From NCBI GenBank assembly GCA_018396535.1, contig JAGTQC010000005.1, forward strand, positions 94,523-158,522: a DNA stretch of 64,000 bases, in the 5' to 3' direction. Under the pieces are notes generated by a model that was not told where the DNA came from, did no database searches, and saw nothing but the letters and a program-made list of their open reading frames with translations. Source of the stretch: Candidatus Bathyarchaeota archaeon (GTDB taxonomy: Archaea; Thermoproteota; CALKCG01; B24; DRYS01). The first letter of the stretch is position 1. Every line of letters starts with the position of its first letter. Made by a program: the position numbers and the translations under genes. This document shows positions 1,183-20,068 of the stretch, piece by piece.

Positions 1183-1992
1183 TTGAGGATCGTATTGAAG
1201 ATAGGTGGAAGCCTATTAGCCGAAGGGGTTGAAGAAACAGAGCTAGCCTCAGATATAGAGAGGATAGCTTCAGAGCATAGCTTAGTTATAGTTCATGGAG
1301 GAGGAAGGGATGTAACTCATGTATGTGAGCGTATGGGTAAGAAGCCTATCTTCGTAACATCACCTGAAGGATTTAGGAGTAGATACACGGATCTAGAAAC
1401 TCTAGAGATATACGTTATGGTTATGGCTGGGAAGGTTAACAAAGAGCTTGTAGCATACCTTAGGAGCAGAGGATTGAATGCTATAGGTCTTTCAGGAGTG
1501 GATGGAGGGATATTGAAGGCTGAGAGGAAGAAGAAGCTTATCATAATCGATGAGAGAGGTCGTAAAAGAGTTATAGAAGGTGGGTATACTGGGAGGATAG
1601 TATCCGTCGATACTCGTATACTAGAGTATCTATTGAATCTAGGCTACATACCTGTAATCGCACCTATAGCTTTAGGGACTGAGGGCGAAATGCTCAACGT
1701 TGACGGAGATAGAGCTGCAGCTTATATCGCTGGCGCTATGAAAGCGGATAGGCTTATCCTAACGACGGATGTGGATGCTGTATACGTTAAAGGTAAGCCT
1801 ATCAGTAAGTTGAGTCTAGATGAAGCTAAGGCTGCGCTTAAGGATATAGGGCCGGGTATGATAACTAAGATCTACGCATCTATAGAAGCATTAGCGATGG
1901 GTGTAGGGAGAGTACATATATGCTCTGGTAAAGGCGATTCCCCACTCCTCAAAGCTTTAGAAGGATTAACAGGGACTGTTCTAGAACGGTAG
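1183..1992 (+). CDS. lysZ: [LysW]-aminoadipate/[LysW]-glutamate kinase
   Basis: KIGGS, VHGGG, SRYTD, NVDGDRAA; directly after lysW. Confidence 0.92.
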   Translation: MRIVLKIGGSLLAEGVEETELASDIERIASEHSLVIVHGGGRDVTHVCERMGKKPIFVTSPEGFRSRYTDLETLEIYVMVMAGKVNKELVAYLRSRGLNAIGLSGVDGGILKAERKKKLIIIDERGRKRVIEGGYTGRIVSVDTRILEYLLNLGYIPVIAPIALGTEGEMLNVDGDRAAAYIAGAMKADRLILTTDVDAVYVKGKPISKLSLDEAKAALKDIGPGMITKIYASIEALAMGVGRVHICSGKGDSPLLKALEGLTGTVLER

Positions 1993-12810: not shown

Positions 12811-14053
12811 GGCTTCCTAGAACCTTCCTCGATGCCTCAGCTACCCTATCCCTAAACTCCCTGTATGTATATACTCTAACTATGTTCATAAACGATTTGA
12901 GTACAGAGACTAATTGTGAAGCTTCAGCTAACCTATACCTACTCACCCTCCCATCTAATTCTACTTTAAATACAGGTATCTGGTAGGCTTCGACATCCAT
13001 AGCGTATGCATACGGTACTGATGGAAGTGAGGGTGCATCTATAAATACCATAGATTGATCTACACCTGCTGTAGATGCTATCTCAGACTCAATCCTCATC
13101 CTAACAGACTCCTTAGCTAGGAGGGAAACTAGAAGCCTATCCTCTATGAAGTATAAGCGTTCGTACGCACACTTTAGAAGTCTTCGTGAAGCTATATCTT
13201 TGATAAACTTAGATGAATCCTTATTCTCTAGTAGTATCGACCACATCGTATAGTCATCTAAAGCTATATACTCCTCCACACTACTAAAGAATGGTATCCC
13301 CATATCCTCCGCAGCTAGCTCTATAGCTTTACCTAGCATTATCTGAACAGCTCTAGATACCTTATGGTAATATATAGTCCTAAACGATTGGATACGAGCT
13401 ATTAGAAATGATTCAAGAGTGGGTAGCGCTGTATAATCCACAGCTAGCTCTCCATCGATAATACCGAAGGTATATATCAACCTATAGATATCTATGGATC
13501 CATATCCAGCACCCGTATGGTAGGAGTCTCTTACTAGAAAGTCGAGTTTATCCGCATCTACCGCTCCATGTATAATCTGATTCATATAAGCCGGCATCTT
13601 TCTACATCTACCTACAGCGAGTAAGCCTATCTCTTCTGGGTTAAACCCGTAATTCTCTACAACATCTGCTATAGAAGTCTCCTTCACGATCTCTACAGTC
13701 ATATCCTCATGGGTTTTACCTAGAAACTTGTATAGTAGTGGTTCGAATACATGGGAGAATGGACCGTGACCTACATCATGTAGTAAGCCTGCTAATCTAA
13801 GTTTAACTATATCCTCCTCTGAGAGTTGTATAGGTAGATTCTGAGCGGCCAAACCAGCAAGATACATAACTCCTAGTGAATGTTCAAACCTAGTATGATT
13901 CGCAGCTGGGTATACATACTCCGCTCCACATAGCTGTTTTATACGTCTAAGTCTCTGAACAGCATCCTGATCTATGATATCCCTCTCAAACTCTGTTACC
14001 CTTACATACCCGTATATGGGGTCTTTAATGAATCCCCAGTACTTACTATACAA
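12782..14053 (-). CDS. HD-domain dNTP triphosphohydrolase (SAMHD1-like)
   Basis: DPIYG, QRLRRIKQL, HTRFEHSLG, LLHDVGHGPFSH, DADKLDFLVRD, IYYHK. Confidence 0.92.
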   Translation of the reverse strand: MYSKYWGFIKDPIYGYVRVTEFERDIIDQDAVQRLRRIKQLCGAEYVYPAANHTRFEHSLGVMYLAGLAAQNLPIQLSEEDIVKLRLAGLLHDVGHGPFSHVFEPLLYKFLGKTHEDMTVEIVKETSIADVVENYGFNPEEIGLLAVGRCRKMPAYMNQIIHGAVDADKLDFLVRDSYHTGAGYGSIDIYRLIYTFGIIDGELAVDYTALPTLESFLIARIQSFRTIYYHKVSRAVQIMLGKAIELAAEDMGIPFFSSVEEYIALDDYTMWSILLENKDSSKFIKDIASRRLLKCAYERLYFIEDRLLVSLLAKESVRMRIESEIASTAGVDQSMVFIDAPSLPSVPYAYAMDVEAYQIPVFKVELDGRVSRYRLAEASQLVSVLKSFMNIVRVYTYREFRDRVAEASRKVLGSPTLSELVSY

Positions 14054-14122
14054 GATCTAGACACCCTAACCCTATATATCTAGACGTTAGGTAAGTCATA
14101 TAAATGGGTTAAGGTGTAGGTT

Positions 14123-14980
14123 GTGAACGTAGATGCAGCTATACTTAACGATGTACTATCAAACTTAGAGCAGATAGTATCGAAGTATGAGTATTTTACA
14201 AGCGATGTAGCTGCTGAACTTAAGAGTATTTGTAGAGGCCTACATCCAGTAGTGGTTAGACGTATATATGTATCGGTTAGAGGGTTACTTACACCGAAAC
14301 CGAAGGTTTATAATGGTTTATTCATAGCCGTATCTGGTATCGATAAATCTGGTAAAGAGACGCAATGCTTTAATCCAAATCATCTAGAGGGTGTAGTATC
14401 GGTTAAAGACCTACTTAAAAACTATGGTTACCGTGTATACGCTGTAAGTTTACCAAGCTATAATACCGTTTTAGGCTCGCTTGTTGGAGCATACATAGGG
14501 AGGAGTGATACTAGGTATAGGATAGTATTGACTGGGAGGATAGATGATGATTTAGCTTGGATTTTGTGGAGCTTAGATAGGGGACAGTATGCTGAAAGAG
14601 TTTCGAAGATACTTCTAGATGGAGGCTCCGCTATACTAGCTAAGAGATGGACTGAGAGCAATCTTGCATATCAGGCTGCTAAAGGTATAGATCCGTCTAG
14701 GATACTACTCTTCGAGAGGAATATACCTCAACCGAGTTTAACTATAGTGATAGATATACCTGTAGAGGAGGTTCTACGTAGGGTTAAAGATCCAGATCTA
14801 TACGAGCGGAGTAGTAGATATCTAGATATGGTTCGTAAGATGTATTTCAAGCTGATAGAGGATGGATTAATAAGATCTACTATCATAGTTAACGGTCTAG
14901 GTAAGCCGGAGGATGTTAATCGAAGATTAATAGCGGTAATACGCCATGCTATACCTAGGAGACGAGTACAGGAGGGTTGA
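14123..14980 (+). CDS. tmk: Thymidylate kinase-like protein with N-terminal extension
   Basis: FIAVSGIDKSGKETQ P-loop, KRWTESNLAYQ, PSLTIVIDIP, DLYER. Confidence 0.75.
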   Translation: MNVDAAILNDVLSNLEQIVSKYEYFTSDVAAELKSICRGLHPVVVRRIYVSVRGLLTPKPKVYNGLFIAVSGIDKSGKETQCFNPNHLEGVVSVKDLLKNYGYRVYAVSLPSYNTVLGSLVGAYIGRSDTRYRIVLTGRIDDDLAWILWSLDRGQYAERVSKILLDGGSAILAKRWTESNLAYQAAKGIDPSRILLFERNIPQPSLTIVIDIPVEEVLRRVKDPDLYERSSRYLDMVRKMYFKLIEDGLIRSTIIVNGLGKPEDVNRRLIAVIRHAIPRRRVQEG

Positions 14981-15385
14981 GCTTGCTTAAAGCTTCGATA
15001 ACCTCTCGTATACTATTCATCCTAAATAACAAATTTAATGAGTATGATAGCTTATGCATTTATATATGAATCAATTCTTGAATAATAGTCTCTTAATTAA
15101 CTGTTTCATCTTCTCCTACTTTCTAGGCTTCTTCATCGAATCTGATAGTCTAAAGCCTAGAATAGTGGGAAGGTAGAGTAAAGAAGCGAAGGTAGTGTAG
15201 GGAAACAATATCTATGAACGCGACTATGGATCTTGGAAAGGATGTAGTTATGAAAATCGAAGGGAAGGGATGGGGGTACCTCACCCATAAGGATTGGCTA
15301 TGATTAGAATGTTATGGAAGCTTTAATAGAATTGAGGATTAGGAAACCCTTATATCCTCCTTAGATCACCTCTTCGTAGGGAGGT

Positions 15386-15664
15386 ATGAAAGTACCCACC
15401 TCTATAAACACCTACTGCCCTAAATGTAGAGCGAAGACTGAGCATAAGGTATCGATATATAGACGTGGTAAGGAGAGCTCTCTCAGAAAGGGTGCTAGGC
15501 ATCATGAATGGCAACTGCATGGGTATGGTGGACAGAAATTCCCTGAGCAGAGGAAGCATGCTAAAACTACTAAGAAACAGGTTATACTATTAAGTTGTGT
15601 TAAATGTGGTTATACTCTTCATCGTTTAGGTGTAAGACTTAGTAAGCTAGAGGTTAAACATTAG
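15386..15664 (+). CDS. rpl44e: 50S ribosomal protein L44e (eL42)
   Basis: TYCPKC..TEHKV, GYGGQKFP, AKTTKK, CVKCG. Confidence 0.96.
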   Translation: MKVPTSINTYCPKCRAKTEHKVSIYRRGKESSLRKGARHHEWQLHGYGGQKFPEQRKHAKTTKKQVILLSCVKCGYTLHRLGVRLSKLEVKH

Positions 15665-15710
15665 GTAGCATAAAGATTAATTAGTTTCGAGAATTACTAA
15701 TCTTTTAGCT

Positions 15711-15964
15711 ATGCCGAAAGCATTCGTCCTCATAAATGCTGAGATAGGGTATGAGAGTGAAGTATTGAAATCTTTGAAGAAGATAGAGAATGTGAAGGAA
15801 GCATATATGGTGTATGGTATATATGATATAATCGTTAGGGTAGAAAGGGGTTGTTAAACCCCCTATAAGCCGATAGTATGGAGAAGCTTAAGGAGATAGT
15901 TACGTGGAAGATAAGGAGATTAGAGCATGTTCAGAGTACTCTAACGATGATAGTCATAGAGTAG
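15711..15964 (+). CDS. Stand-alone Lrp/AsnC ligand-binding (RAM) domain protein, 76 aa after splicing; exons 15711-15845 and 15869-15964
   Basis: Exon 1 MPKAFVLINAEIGYESEVLKSLKKIENVKEAYMVYGIYDIIVRVE plus exon 2 ADSMEKLKEIVTWKIRRLEHVQSTLTMIVIE gives an uninterrupted AsnC C-terminal domain (VYG.YDII..VE...L...IR.L..V.ST.T.IV). Confidence 0.9.
15846..15868 (+). other. Putative 23-nt bulge-helix-bulge (tRNA-type) intron in an mRNA
   Basis: GG-GUAG-[AA^A]-GGGGUU-GUUA-AACCCC-CUAU-[AA^G]-CC; cuts at the canonical bulge positions give GUA GAA GCC GAU in frame. Confidence 0.85.
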
Positions 15965-15975
15965 ACGTAGAATCT

Positions 15976-16602
15976 CTAGATACCATGTAGTCTAATCTTA
16001 AACGCTGAGAGGATAAGTCTTAGAAGTGTAGAGGATACTACAGGTATACTAGATTCATCTACGAACGATGCTATCAGACCTACAGCATCGATTTTTTTAA
16101 TCCTAGCTAAGCCTACTATCAACCCTGAAAGACCTTCAACTCTACTTCTAGAGATAGTCTTAACATTGTATCCCTTGAATATGTCTAGGAGATTTCTCCT
16201 AGAAGCGAATGCTAGTATATCCTCGCTACTCGATTTAATCCCATCCAACGCTACTACGAGTCTGCATCTATATCTACGTGTATAGTCTAGTATAAGACCT
16301 GCTATCTCATAGTATGGTTCTGGGCTGACCGGGCTAGGTTGAACCCTAGCTTCAACTAGTATAATCCTAGGATCTGAATCCGATATATAGTACCATTCAT
16401 AGCTGTTCAGTTTAGCTAAACCTAGCTCATCTATATCTGTATAATCTGGATTATAGGGAGTATACATGTGAGCGAATAACGCTCCTCCAGCTATAGACCT
16501 CATTTTCCTAAGAGTTAAATATCCAACCTCCCCCACCCCTACCAATAGTATAGATGGTTCGATACCTTCTTCACGGATGATTCTTAAACTCGTCTTCAAC
16601 AT
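15976..16602 (-). CDS. PAC2 family (proteasome assembly chaperone-like) protein
   Basis: GVGEVGYL, ARVQP...YYEIA..ILD, VALDG, GLSGLIVGLA..K.IDAVGL. Confidence 0.7.
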   Translation of the reverse strand: MLKTSLRIIREEGIEPSILLVGVGEVGYLTLRKMRSIAGGALFAHMYTPYNPDYTDIDELGLAKLNSYEWYYISDSDPRIILVEARVQPSPVSPEPYYEIAGLILDYTRRYRCRLVVALDGIKSSSEDILAFASRRNLLDIFKGYNVKTISRSRVEGLSGLIVGLARIKKIDAVGLIASFVDESSIPVVSSTLLRLILSAFKIRLHGI

Positions 16603-16769
16603 GGCTTGATAGTTACGAGTAGTATCTAATAATGTGATATAAATTTAACCTGTTTCTCATGGAGTATACGATCTATATCCATCGCATAGTGTTGCAGTAT
16701 GATACGTACAATTCTATTCGATTATATTTATTAGCTGAACAGGCTTAGCATCCTTATGGGTGTTATGCA

Positions 16770-18776
16770 TTGGTATTCATCTTTGGTGTAGACTATTATC
16801 CTGAGCATTGGCCTAGGAGTAGATGGGATATCGATGCCGAGCTTATGTCTGAGTTATGCTTTAACACCGTACGTCTAGCAGAGTTTTCTTGGAGTAGGAT
16901 AGAGCCTAGGGATGGTGTATATGATTTCGGATGGTTAGATGAAGCTATCGATATACTAGCTAAGAAGGGTATAAGGGTTATACTAGGTACTCCTACCGCA
17001 GCTCCTCCACCATGGCTTATAAGAAAGTATCCAGATATCCTACGTATAGATCCTAACGGTATTAGAGCTCCCGCTGGGACTAGGAGGAATTACTGTCCGA
17101 ATAATCCAAACTATATAATGCATACTAAGAGGATAGTCGAGAGGATGGCTTCGCACTATAAGGATAACCCTCATATCATCGGCTGGCAGATAGATAATGA
17201 ATTCGGGATAGATCCATGCTACTGTGATAACTGTATAGAAGCTTTTAGAAGCTGGTTGAGGGAGAAGTATCGGGATATAGATTTACTGAATAAGTTTTGG
17301 GGCTCCATATTTTGGAGTCAGGAGTATAGGGATTGGGGTGAGATACAGCCACCTAAGCCTCCTTTGGATATGCAGAATCCTAGTCTATGCCTTGATTGGC
17401 ATAGATTCATGAATGATTCATGGGTGAGCTACCAGAAAATACAGGTGAATATTATCCGTAGGATCGCACCCCATCATATAGTCACGCATAATCTTATGGG
17501 GTTGTATAAGGAGCTCGACTACTTTAAACTAGCTGAACCGCTGGATGTAGTCTCGTTCGATTACTATCCTAAGCGTAGTCTAACCGTAGACTATGCGAGG
17601 GGGGCTATGGCTCACGATGTTATGCGTAGTTTAAAGAAGAAGGGTTACTGGGTTATGGAGCTTCAAAGTGGAGCTATAAAAGCTCCTATGGCTCCTATAC
17701 CTAAACCTGGTGAGATAAGGCTTTGGACTTTCCAATCGGTGGCAAGGGGGGCTGATGGAATACTATACTTTAGATGGAGATCTTGTAGGTTTGGAGCTGA
17801 AGAGTATTGGCACGGTATCTTAGATCATGATGGTATTCCTAGAAGGAGGTTCTCAGAGGTTAAGAAGGTATCGGAGGATCTTAGGAAGGTGGCTCCGTAT
17901 ATAGAGGGCACGATAGTTAAGCCTGAGATAGCCTTCACCCTAGTCTACGATAGCATCTGGGCTTGGGATCTAGAATTAACTTATGGTGGAAGAAATTATT
18001 ATGGTCTAGGCTCATGGGATCCAGCTCTGGATGTATATAGAGCGTTATACTCTAGGAATCTACCAGTGGATTTTGTCAACCCATATAGAGATGATCTATC
18101 TAGGTATAGGATCGTCTTCGCACCCCCACTCATCCTTATGGATAAGCATATAGAGGATCGTTTAAGAAGCTATGTCAGTGATGGGGGTATACTAGTAGCG
18201 GTACCTAGAACCGGGGTGAAGGATTGGAATAACGTTATAGTCGATTCTACACTACCAGGTGGTTTATCTGATGTATTCGGTATAAATCTGGAGGAGTATA
18301 CTGGTCTACCAGATGAGAGTAGAGTATACGTAGAGATGGATGAAGCTATCTTCGGTAAGAAGGTGGTGGGATCGGGTAGGTGCTGGGCTGAGATGTTAGC
18401 ATCTAGGGGAGCTGATATTATCGCATACTATAGATCCGGTATATATGATGGAAGGCCTGCTATAGCTATGAATAGGTATGGTAGAGGTATCGCCATATAT
18501 ATCGGATCGTTTCTAGATACGAGTAGCTATATACCGCTGATAGATTGGTTGATTAGGATAGCTGATGTTAAGCCTATTCTACACCCGCTAGATGGGGTTG
18601 AAGCTATCGAGAGGATAGGTTCTGAAGGTAGGGTTGTATTCGTGTTAAACTATAATGAAAACTCGGTTAGCATACATCTAGAGGAGGAGTATCTAGATAT
18701 TTTAGCCGGAGGAAGTGTTCGTGGAGATATAGGGGTCGACGGGTTGGATGTTAAGATACTTAGATCATCGAGTTAA
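16770..18776 (+). CDS. GH42 beta-galactosidase
   Basis: GVDYYPEHW, RLAEFSWS.IEP, LGTPTAAPP, WQIDNE, WVMELQ, YFRWR, GAEEYWHG. Confidence 0.95.
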   Translation: MVFIFGVDYYPEHWPRSRWDIDAELMSELCFNTVRLAEFSWSRIEPRDGVYDFGWLDEAIDILAKKGIRVILGTPTAAPPPWLIRKYPDILRIDPNGIRAPAGTRRNYCPNNPNYIMHTKRIVERMASHYKDNPHIIGWQIDNEFGIDPCYCDNCIEAFRSWLREKYRDIDLLNKFWGSIFWSQEYRDWGEIQPPKPPLDMQNPSLCLDWHRFMNDSWVSYQKIQVNIIRRIAPHHIVTHNLMGLYKELDYFKLAEPLDVVSFDYYPKRSLTVDYARGAMAHDVMRSLKKKGYWVMELQSGAIKAPMAPIPKPGEIRLWTFQSVARGADGILYFRWRSCRFGAEEYWHGILDHDGIPRRRFSEVKKVSEDLRKVAPYIEGTIVKPEIAFTLVYDSIWAWDLELTYGGRNYYGLGSWDPALDVYRALYSRNLPVDFVNPYRDDLSRYRIVFAPPLILMDKHIEDRLRSYVSDGGILVAVPRTGVKDWNNVIVDSTLPGGLSDVFGINLEEYTGLPDESRVYVEMDEAIFGKKVVGSGRCWAEMLASRGADIIAYYRSGIYDGRPAIAMNRYGRGIAIYIGSFLDTSSYIPLIDWLIRIADVKPILHPLDGVEAIERIGSEGRVVFVLNYNENSVSIHLEEEYLDILAGGSVRGDIGVDGLDVKILRSSS

Positions 18777-18790
18777 ACCCAACCCCTCAT

Positions 18791-20068
18791 CTATACATAC
18801 TCCTCTACCACTATGACTGTATCTATAGGATCTAAAGGTTTCTCAGGTACCTCTACTACCAGATCTTTTCCATCCCATCTATAGGTTAATCCTCCATTAT
18901 CTTGAGCTGCTAGTAGGTATACCTCTCTAGGTTCAATCCTCCCCTCTACATCGAATATTCTAAGCTCCCTATCCCAGGGCCATCCGAATACATGTATATA
19001 GAGTTTACCATATCTATATGTACACCTATACGGCGCATCGCTAGGTATATCGAAGGGTGCTGCTCCAGCACCGTAGATGCTTTCTCCATTCTTCCTAAGC
19101 CATCTACCTACCTCGAGTAGTATATCTACTGATGGTTTCGGTATCTCCCCTTCAGCAGTAGGCCCTACGTTGAGTAGTAGATTTCCACCCTTACCTACGA
19201 CTTCTACAAGTATTTGTATAACTCTACCTGGAGACTTCCAGTTATGATCGTAGCTTTTATAACCCCATGTATCGTTAAGGGTCATAGGTACCTCCCAATC
19301 ATCATCTATCTTTCTATCTGGTATCTGGTTATCGCCCATCGATATATAGTCAGCTAAACCTCTAGAAGGTATGGTAGGTCTACCTATCCTACCACCTATA
19401 CGTCCGCTTATGATAGTCTCTGGAGATATTCTGCGAACTAGATCTCTAAGCTCGCGTGCAAGCTCAGGTATGGGGGTAGTTATATCGAACCATAATACTG
19501 CTACAGGCTTATATTTCGTTAGAAGTTCTTCGACTTGCGGCTCCACATACTCCCTGAAGTATCTTGTAAAATTTTGCTTCGATATATCGTAATCCCAATC
19601 GTTACCCATACCATCTGGATGATGCCAATCCAGCGTCTGAGAGTAGTAGAATCCAAGCTTCATACCCTCCATCCTACAAGCTTCTGCAAGCTCTTTAAGA
19701 GGATCTCTTCTAAACGGGGTTGCCTTAACGATATTATAGTCAGTATACCTTGTATCGAACATACAGAACCCATCATGATGTTTAGCCGTTATAACGATAT
19801 ACTTCATACCTGCATCCCTAGCTATATGAACCCATTCTCTAGCGTTGAACTTGGTAGGGTTGAATCTCTCTGCAAGCTTCTCATACTCTCTCACAGGTAT
19901 CCTAGCATTATACATTATCCATTCACCTATACCAGATATACACCTACCCCTCCACACACCAGCAGGTATAGCGTATAAACCCCAGTGTATGAACATACCG
20001 AATCTAGCTTCACGCCACCAAGCCATACGTCTATCCCTTTCGCATATATGCTCCATTATAACCACCAC
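18791..20068 (-). CDS. GH29 alpha-L-fucosidase family glycosidase
   Basis: WWREARFGMFIHWG, AGMKY...TAKHHDGF, YYS..DWHHP, LWFD, GNLLLNVGP. Confidence 0.93.
   Translation of the reverse strand: MVVIMEHICERDRRMAWWREARFGMFIHWGLYAIPAGVWRGRCISGIGEWIMYNARIPVREYEKLAERFNPTKFNAREWVHIARDAGMKYIVITAKHHDGFCMFDTRYTDYNIVKATPFRRDPLKELAEACRMEGMKLGFYYSQTLDWHHPDGMGNDWDYDISKQNFTRYFREYVEPQVEELLTKYKPVAVLWFDITTPIPELARELRDLVRRISPETIISGRIGGRIGRPTIPSRGLADYISMGDNQIPDRKIDDDWEVPMTLNDTWGYKSYDHNWKSPGRVIQILVEVVGKGGNLLLNVGPTAEGEIPKPSVDILLEVGRWLRKNGESIYGAGAAPFDIPSDAPYRCTYRYGKLYIHVFGWPWDRELRIFDVEGRIEPREVYLLAAQDNGGLTYRWDGKDLVVEVPEKPLDPIDTVIVVEEYV

Follow-up and report, generated by a model that had tools for sequence, protein, structure and literature searches.

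A 23-nucleotide (nt) insert that breaks the coding sequence of a small gene of the Lrp/AsnC family in a hot-spring archaeon is, with a probability that we put at roughly 0.87, a bulge-helix-bulge (BHB) intron that would be removed from the mRNA at predicted sites by the tRNA-splicing endonuclease EndA, the exons being rejoined by the ligase RtcB. The gene lies in a stretch of 64,000 nt from Candidatus Bathyarchaeota archaeon (NCBI GenBank assembly GCA_018396535.1, contig JAGTQC010000005.1, forward-strand positions 94,523 to 158,522; this whole stretch is termed the window, and all unprefixed positions refer to it). Within a 93%-complete genome of 1.41 Mb in 14 contigs (G000), the window corresponds to contig C10, and the sequencing runs that hold the stretch are hot-spring metagenomes. 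The gene codes for a stand-alone version of the ligand-binding RAM domain, and we infer cleavage and ligation of its message in vivo from the anatomy of the insert, its conservation across an archaeal order, the covariation of its pairing partners, purifying selection on both exons, and the presence of the genes for the requisite enzymes.

The interrupted gene and its predicted spliced product

The insert separates codons 45 and 46 of the RAM gene in the context ...GTT AGG GTA GAA ↓ AGGGGTTGTTAAACCCCCTATAA ↓ GCC GAT AGT ATG... (arrows mark borders or cut sites here and below). It contains an in-frame TAA (15855–15857) and, its length not being a multiple of three, also shifts the frame; the unspliced open reading frame (ORF) accordingly ends after 48 aa, exactly as given in the original prediction, which had been made from the letters of the DNA alone. 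Public gene calls hold only this truncated 48-aa ORF, in line with the expectation voiced there that an annotation pipeline would call the gene a pseudogene or miss it. Excision yields an ORF of 76 aa with the predicted junction V-E↓A-D (GUA GAA↓GCC GAU), the spliced junction letters being ...GGGTAGAA↓GCCGATAG... (also written ...AGGGTAGAA↓GCCGATAGT...). In Pfam searches the 45 aa of exon 1 match profile positions 2–40 of PF01037 (AsnC_trans_reg; E 8e-6) and the 31 aa of exon 2 match positions 42–72, and because these two matches adjoin, removal of the 23 nt rebuilds one continuous PF01037 domain, as had been anticipated from placing both cuts between bulge nucleotides two and three. The insert is also genuine at the level of DNA, a point on which the original prediction had asked for confirmation from raw reads: contigs of runs X1, X3, and X9, which come from three independent hot-spring studies, carry it without gaps over at least 15357–16096. 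Together with its flanks it occurs in one copy only in the genome (blastn-short), and in the absence of a second genomic copy in this search we rejected an origin from a repeat or miniature inverted-repeat transposable element.

The archaeal splicing endonuclease cuts between the second and third nucleotides of the bulges of its substrate (PMC2738675). In the transcript of the RAM gene, a central 4-bp helix, GUAG (15840–15843)/CUAU (15863–15866), stands between two 3-nt bulges, AAA (15844–15846) and AAG (15867–15869). On the exon side it is followed by an outer helix, GG (15838–15839)/CC (15870–15871), which is paired in 14 of 14 species, and on the intron side by a 6-bp stem, GGGGUU (15847–15852)/AACCCC (15857–15862), with a GUUA loop (15853–15856), the equivalent stem measuring 4–11 bp in the relatives. 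The minimum-free-energy (MFE) fold of 15826–15882 recovers the GUAG/CUAU helix, the AAA bulge, and the intron stem with its loop, so that these parts of the originally proposed structure stood.

Conservation and covariation of the insert across the order

For the comparison, 40 relatives and the order as a whole (16 species genomes) were searched with exon 1, and exon 2 was located by tblastn. In 14 of the 16 species genomes, from 4 families, an insert of 21, 22, 23, 30, 31, or 32 nt sits at the equivalent codon boundary. One further genome (G003) has an uninterrupted RAM gene at the corresponding locus next to rpl44e, and in G005 (82% complete) no ortholog was found with the exon-1 query. None of 66 loci from other orders or neighboring lineages has an insert. 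The named relatives from the exon-1 alignment search are nearly all metagenome-assembled genomes (MAGs) labeled “Candidatus Bathyarchaeota/Bathyarchaeia”, the nearest being from hot springs. Among the 14 loci of relatives, 13 (that of G003 being one of them) have the gene for ribosomal protein L44e (rpl44e) directly upstream of the RAM gene, and on account of this adjacency these RAM genes are positional orthologs; no rpl44e match was obtained in the short L007 locus. By parsimony, the distribution suggests a single intron gain in the ancestor of this hot-spring order followed by one precise loss. The G003 version (L006, G003:C12:26409-29543; gene at 1402–1635, minus strand) is the only intronless ortholog in the order, the loss having left no scar; this fits a route via a spliced copy, of the kind that PMC2738675 discusses for the cbf5 intron, and makes the locus a small natural system for the study of intron gain and loss in prokaryotes.

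The borders of the inserts were set from protein homology alone and then compared with the BHB rule: in 14 of 14 species they fall after the second nucleotide of both 3-nt bulges, with a 4-nt helix in-between. Within the exons, the nucleotides contributing to the motif are fixed in the pattern NGG-GUR-GAR↓GCY in each of the 14 intron bearers, whereas the equivalent codons of the intronless G003 gene have drifted to CGT GTT GAA GCT; since these exon strands consist of codons, they are doubly constrained, by the protein sequence and by pairing. The central helix occurs in several variants (GUAG/CUAU, GUAG/CUAC, GUGG/CCAC, and GUGG/CCAU), with the change of the Val codon from GUA to GUG being accompanied by a U to C change in the intron, and the intron stems, whose sequences are unrelated between species, remain paired. 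Over the alignment, 94–95% of the cells are paired (94.8% on alignment A2) as against 38–55% with the partners slid, and 4–5 pairs are altered on both sides; the covariation score was reached by 0 of 500 shuffles, a statistic that overstates independence because the species are kin. The ortholog alignment proposed as a check on the original prediction thus returned same-site inserts with compensatory changes in 14 species, as well as the purifying selection on both exons described below.

Several observations weigh against this reading. The MFE fold prefers an outer helix AUCG/CGAU over GG/CC, leaving four rather than three unpaired nucleotides on the 3' side, and on this point it departs from the structure as first drawn; the AUC/GAU extension that had been part of that structure is only 83% paired across the species and may be optional, and the secure outer helix comprises 2 bp only. 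The single-sequence fold is not significant (z = -1.65, with 11 of 200 shuffles folding equally well), and the significance of the structure therefore rests on the comparative data. There, the 14 related species amount to about 4–5 independent structural variants, and two of them (G006 and G009) have one mismatch (U-C or U-U) in the central helix, which is fully paired in the other 12. Finally, the sole metatranscriptome among the runs that hold the stretch (X17, share 0.08), whose contigs were compared over 13000–19000, has contigs covering rpl44e at 15387–15638 and not the insert; its contig that touches exon 2 (15878–15913) continues upstream as the intronless homolog of another organism.

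With respect to the two mismatched versions, the affected position is the second pair of the central helix (GUGG/CCCC in G006, locus L005, and GUGG/CCUC in G009, locus L008). These genomes are congeners and have longer outer helices (4–5 bp) and the longest inserts (31–32 nt); theirs is a relaxed motif that would escape a strict BHB search.

Purifying selection and alternative explanations

After excision, an intact frame of 76–78 aa is obtained in 14 of 14 species with no secondary lesions, and read-through stops early in every one of them, including those with the frame-keeping 21- and 30-nt inserts, which carry a TAA. In the post-splicing frame, the ratio of non-synonymous to synonymous change (pN/pS) amounts to 0.14 in exon 1 and 0.20 in exon 2, and the 8 changes that separate exon 2 from its counterpart in the congener G001 are all synonymous. 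Purifying selection on exon 2 in the frame made by ligation implies that exon 2 is translated in a frame that only splicing creates. Codons 46–48 (A-D/E-S/T), which immediately follow the insert, are conserved as amino acids with variable third positions (GAT/GAC; AGT/AGC/ACT/ACC/TCC/TCT).

This last pattern bears on the possibility of a split gene, in which translation from the ATG at 15711 (48 aa) and from an ATG at 15878 (28 aa) would give two separate pieces that assemble into a RAM fold. An ORF at 15878–15964 does exist, both halves are conserved, and its ATG, which corresponds to Met49 of the spliced protein and lies 10 nt past the insert, is present in 14 of 14 species. However, the same Met is conserved in the intronless homologs and is thus not an added start, codons 46–48 lie upstream of it and are evidently read in the exon-2 frame rather than lying outside a separate 28-aa piece, and inspection by eye detected no Shine-Dalgarno-like motif at the usual distance before 15878. 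As it would also leave the BHB geometry, the fixed register of the cut sites, and the covariation between exon and intron without explanation, we regard a split gene as very improbable. An equally slim chance attaches to EndA cutting the message without the exons being rejoined, as a site of mRNA inactivation or decay, or to a conditional switch, with the truncated form being the main product. The shape of the motif, the presence of EndA, and the influence on expression of a BHB element in a Haloferax 5' untranslated region (UTR; PMC7714728) are all compatible with such a role, but the selection on exon 2 in the ligation-made frame requires a ligated message that is translated, and the genome encodes RtcB.

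Still less probable is translational recoding, with the ribosome bypassing the hairpin or shifting frame across it in the manner of T4 gene 60 hopping, and no RNA processing taking place. There is precedent for confusing the two, in that cbf5 introns were formerly mistaken for frameshifting (PMC2738675), and the insert does place a stable hairpin directly after a stop-containing stretch. Against this, the inserts of 21–32 nt occupy all three phases, the potential take-off and landing codons are unmatched (GAA versus GCC), and recoding has no need for two 3-nt bulges set 4 bp apart with covarying exon–intron pairs. Least likely of all is inactivation of the gene by a chance 23-nt insertion, or an artifact of assembly, which would account for the broken unspliced frame and the 48-aa gene calls, since the intact exons and low pN/pS values (0.14–0.20) in 14 species exclude a pseudogene, and independent assemblies agree on the insert.

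Splicing enzymes and the proposed mechanism

The genome encodes two EndA paralogs (PF01974; G000:C2:6210-6773 and G000:C1:182214-182783) and one RtcB (596 bits), as removal of the insert by the tRNA-splicing enzymes would demand. The best matches of the first EndA paralog are the chains 3p1z_B, 3ajv_B, 2cv8_A, and 2zyz_B (E down to 7e-48), which we take to be catalytic subunits of crenarchaeal EndA, and by eye it retains the Tyr/His/Lys pattern. For the second paralog the best match is 5x89_A, over the first half of that chain (‘EndA-like protein,tRNA-splicing endonuclease’), with a weak match to 3p1z_A, and by eye this paralog apparently lacks the catalytic His. Judged by these best matches and the reading of the motif, from which the subunit roles are assigned (the first alpha-like, the second beta-like), the pair fits a crenarchaeal-type (alpha-beta)2 enzyme. 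The (alpha-beta)2 form is one of only two types of EndA that cut non-canonical introns (PMC5829648). As a separate observation, ARAGORN finds 36 tRNA genes only in this 93%-complete genome, five of them with introns, including an implausible 844-nt ‘intron’ in a tRNA-Val; so low a count points to several tRNA genes with multiple or non-canonical introns having gone undetected.

We propose that in the transcript the last codons of exon 1 (aGG GUA GAA) and the first codon of exon 2 (GCC) would form base pairs among themselves and with the insert's 3' portion, giving the 4-bp helix between two 3-nt bulges with the 6-bp intron hairpin as a cap. The heteromeric (alpha-beta)2 EndA would then cut between the second and third nucleotides of each bulge, that is, after 15845 and after 15868, and RtcB would ligate the exons to ...GUA GAA↓GCC GAU.... 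Under this mechanism only the spliced message would encode the full RAM domain, the unspliced one ending after 48 codons, and the intron would have been gained in the ancestor of the hot-spring Bathyarchaeia order, kept in 14 of 16 species, and precisely lost in one. As to whether such splicing would be constitutive or regulatory, nothing in the sequences compared favors a regulatory use.

A stand-alone RAM protein

The original prediction had described the product as an Lrp/AsnC regulator. The ligand-binding part of this description is correct, as the RAM domain PF01037 spans the 76-aa protein fully; however, a Pfam search found no helix-turn-helix domain in it, and it is not a DNA-binding Lrp/AsnC regulator. 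Matches between the RAM protein and full-length regulators cover only the C-terminal halves of the latter and lie far below the cut-offs. Given that it has no DNA-binding domain, the term “regulator” overstates the product, its regulator status coming from the family. The intronless G003 ortholog aligns with a stand-alone RAM structure (2zbc_A) over 76 residues (E 1.4e-24), and this structure, like 2cvi_A and 2e1a_A, is of the same size and consists of the ligand-binding domain only, as does the protein described here. The difference lies in the genes, that of the RAM protein being interrupted whereas, to our knowledge, those behind 2zbc_A, 2cvi_A, and 2e1a_A carry no interruption. Small molecules serve as ligands for stand-alone RAM modules, which can also partner with full-length Lrp/AsnC proteins.

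Other candidate mRNA introns in the genome

The suspicion that this genome hides further introns was borne out by BHB inserts in the genes for cbf5, EF-2, aIF5B, and SAM synthetase (Table 1). The cbf5 insert lies between letters 1 and 2 of the triplet that encodes the catalytic Asp (GGTL↓DPAVTG), exactly where the crenarchaeal cbf5 intron, the splicing of which has experimental proof, is located (site per PMC2738675). The other three were chosen by eye as long perfect hairpins and checked by translation, and we presume from the restored motifs that the genes are those for EF-2, aIF5B, and SAM synthetase. The bulges in these three inserts are likewise A-rich (AA↓A, TG↓A, AG↓A, AA↓A, AC↓A).

A systematic approach fared worse: a genome-wide scan of G000 for BHB motifs combined with ORFs, of the kind suggested alongside the original prediction, gave no excess over decoy bulge geometries with any of three filter sets (2331 versus 2203–2333, 48 versus 34 and 55, and 539 versus 513–545), so that the total number of mRNA introns is not estimable from such a scan. 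A filter of at least two outer-helix pairs missed cbf5, which has 1 pair only. Upstream of cbf5, a 37-nt element (G000:C1:62627-62663, plus strand; L115:1117–1153) has an 11-bp perfect hairpin with BHB-like spacing and overlaps the stop codon of the preceding gene; possible roles are those of a terminator or of a further site for the endonuclease.

Should these candidates be real, mRNA cutting and re-ligation by the tRNA-splicing enzymes might be a routine layer of expression in this order, with at least five messages (EF-2, aIF5B, SAM synthetase, cbf5, and RAM) untranslatable until spliced, and EndA and RtcB could globally gate translation capacity along with the RAM protein in an archaeal analog of IRE1–XBP1-type control. 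We offer this as a speculative proposal that is, on balance, unlikely to hold.

Table 1. Features of the RAM locus and candidate BHB inserts elsewhere in the genome (window positions, or genome:contig:positions and locus:positions where prefixed)
Feature	Position	Strand	Remarks
Exon 1, codons 1–45 (MPKAF...IVRVE)	15711..15845	+	ATG at 15711; PF01037 2–40; 73–96% identity in 13 other species of the order
Predicted BHB intron AGGGGTTGTTAAACCCCCTATAA, 23 nt	15846..15868	+	same-codon-boundary inserts in the order; independent DNA assemblies; single copy
Exon 2, codons 46–76 (ADSMEKL...MIVIE) and stop TAG	15869..15964	+	codons 15869–15961, stop 15962–15964; PF01037 42–72; pN/pS 0.20 in post-splicing frame
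Bulge-helix-bulge motif	15838..15871	+	fold and covariation; predicted cuts after 15845 and 15868
rpl44e (ribosomal protein L44e), upstream neighbor	15386..15664	+	Pfam Ribosomal_L44, E 4e-23
cbf5 BHB insert, 34 nt	G000:C1:62867-62900; L115:1357-1390	+	outside the window
EF-2 BHB insert, 32 nt	G000:C9:125139-125170	-	excision restores QIR↓NIGIIAHVDHGKT; outside the window
aIF5B BHB insert, 24 nt	G000:C12:5713-5736	-	excision restores EAGGM↓TQHIGA; outside the window
SAM synthetase BHB insert, 35 nt	G000:C8:172213-172247	-	excision restores ER↓KGLGHPD; outside the window

Relationship to known splicing systems

The mechanism proposed here has been described before; what is new is the gene concerned, its lineage, and the conservation across an entire order. 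The closest parallel to the RAM intron is the BHB intron of the cbf5 pre-mRNA in Crenarchaeota (Desulfurococcales and Sulfolobales; Watanabe 2002; Yokobori 2009), the splicing of which has cDNA support (PMC2738675). The cbf5 and RAM introns are both short BHB introns in coding sequence with a hetero-oligomeric EndA and a predicted cut between the second and third bulge nucleotides, and both show gain at the level of a clade, loss without a scar, and mis-annotation by gene callers. They differ in the gene (here one of 76 aa for a RAM protein), in the lineage (here one Bathyarchaeia order), and in placement, the RAM intron lying between codons (phase 0) and the cbf5 intron inside the catalytic codon; moreover, the proof for cbf5 comes from cDNA and in vitro work, whereas that for the RAM intron is comparative. 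A second parallel, the BHB intron in the 5' UTR of the Haloferax volcanii HVO_1309 mRNA (Schwarz 2020, PMC7714728), likewise has the archaeal splicing endonuclease acting on an mRNA rather than on tRNA or rRNA, but it sits in a euryarchaeal untranslated leader and leaves the frame uninterrupted, while the RAM coding frame depends on excision. In the literature open to search, these two are the only BHB introns reported in archaeal mRNAs, others being merely “predicted”, and splicing within a coding region has been confirmed for cbf5 only (PMC2738675, PMC7714728); a review (PMC13149111) and a preprint (10.64898/2026.10.13.758758) do not mention archaeal mRNA introns.

The canonical and non-canonical introns of archaeal tRNAs (hBHBh', relaxed HBh') share with the RAM intron the motif and the presumed EndA/RtcB machinery, the difference being that the host RNA here is a messenger, with codons making up the exon side of the motif. 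Very short introns, comparable to the 21–32 nt found here, are typical of Thermoproteota tRNAs. A functional analogy is offered by the IRE1-dependent splicing of HAC1/XBP1 mRNA in eukaryotes (mentioned in the review PMC13149111), which is regulated by stress and in which the metazoan exons are joined by RtcB: there too, a short frame-changing mRNA intron is cut by a structure-guided protein endonuclease and the full-length protein is made only after splicing. That system differs in having an unrelated endonuclease (IRE1), a motif of paired stem-loops, and stress regulation.

If the RAM intron is spliced as proposed, it would be a second, unrelated coding gene with an order-wide BHB intron, one among at least five in this genome, and tRNA-type splicing of mRNA would be no one-gene curiosity in this lineage. 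Stubs similar to the 48-aa one annotated here probably conceal other genes in Bathyarchaeia MAGs, which would distort estimates of completeness and the inference of metabolism.

Gene neighborhood

The stop codon of rpl44e and the ATG of the RAM gene are separated by 46 A/T-rich nucleotides (15665–15710), and the pairing of the two genes is kept across the order. They may be co-transcribed, which would place the intron-bearing cistron on a ribosomal-protein message.
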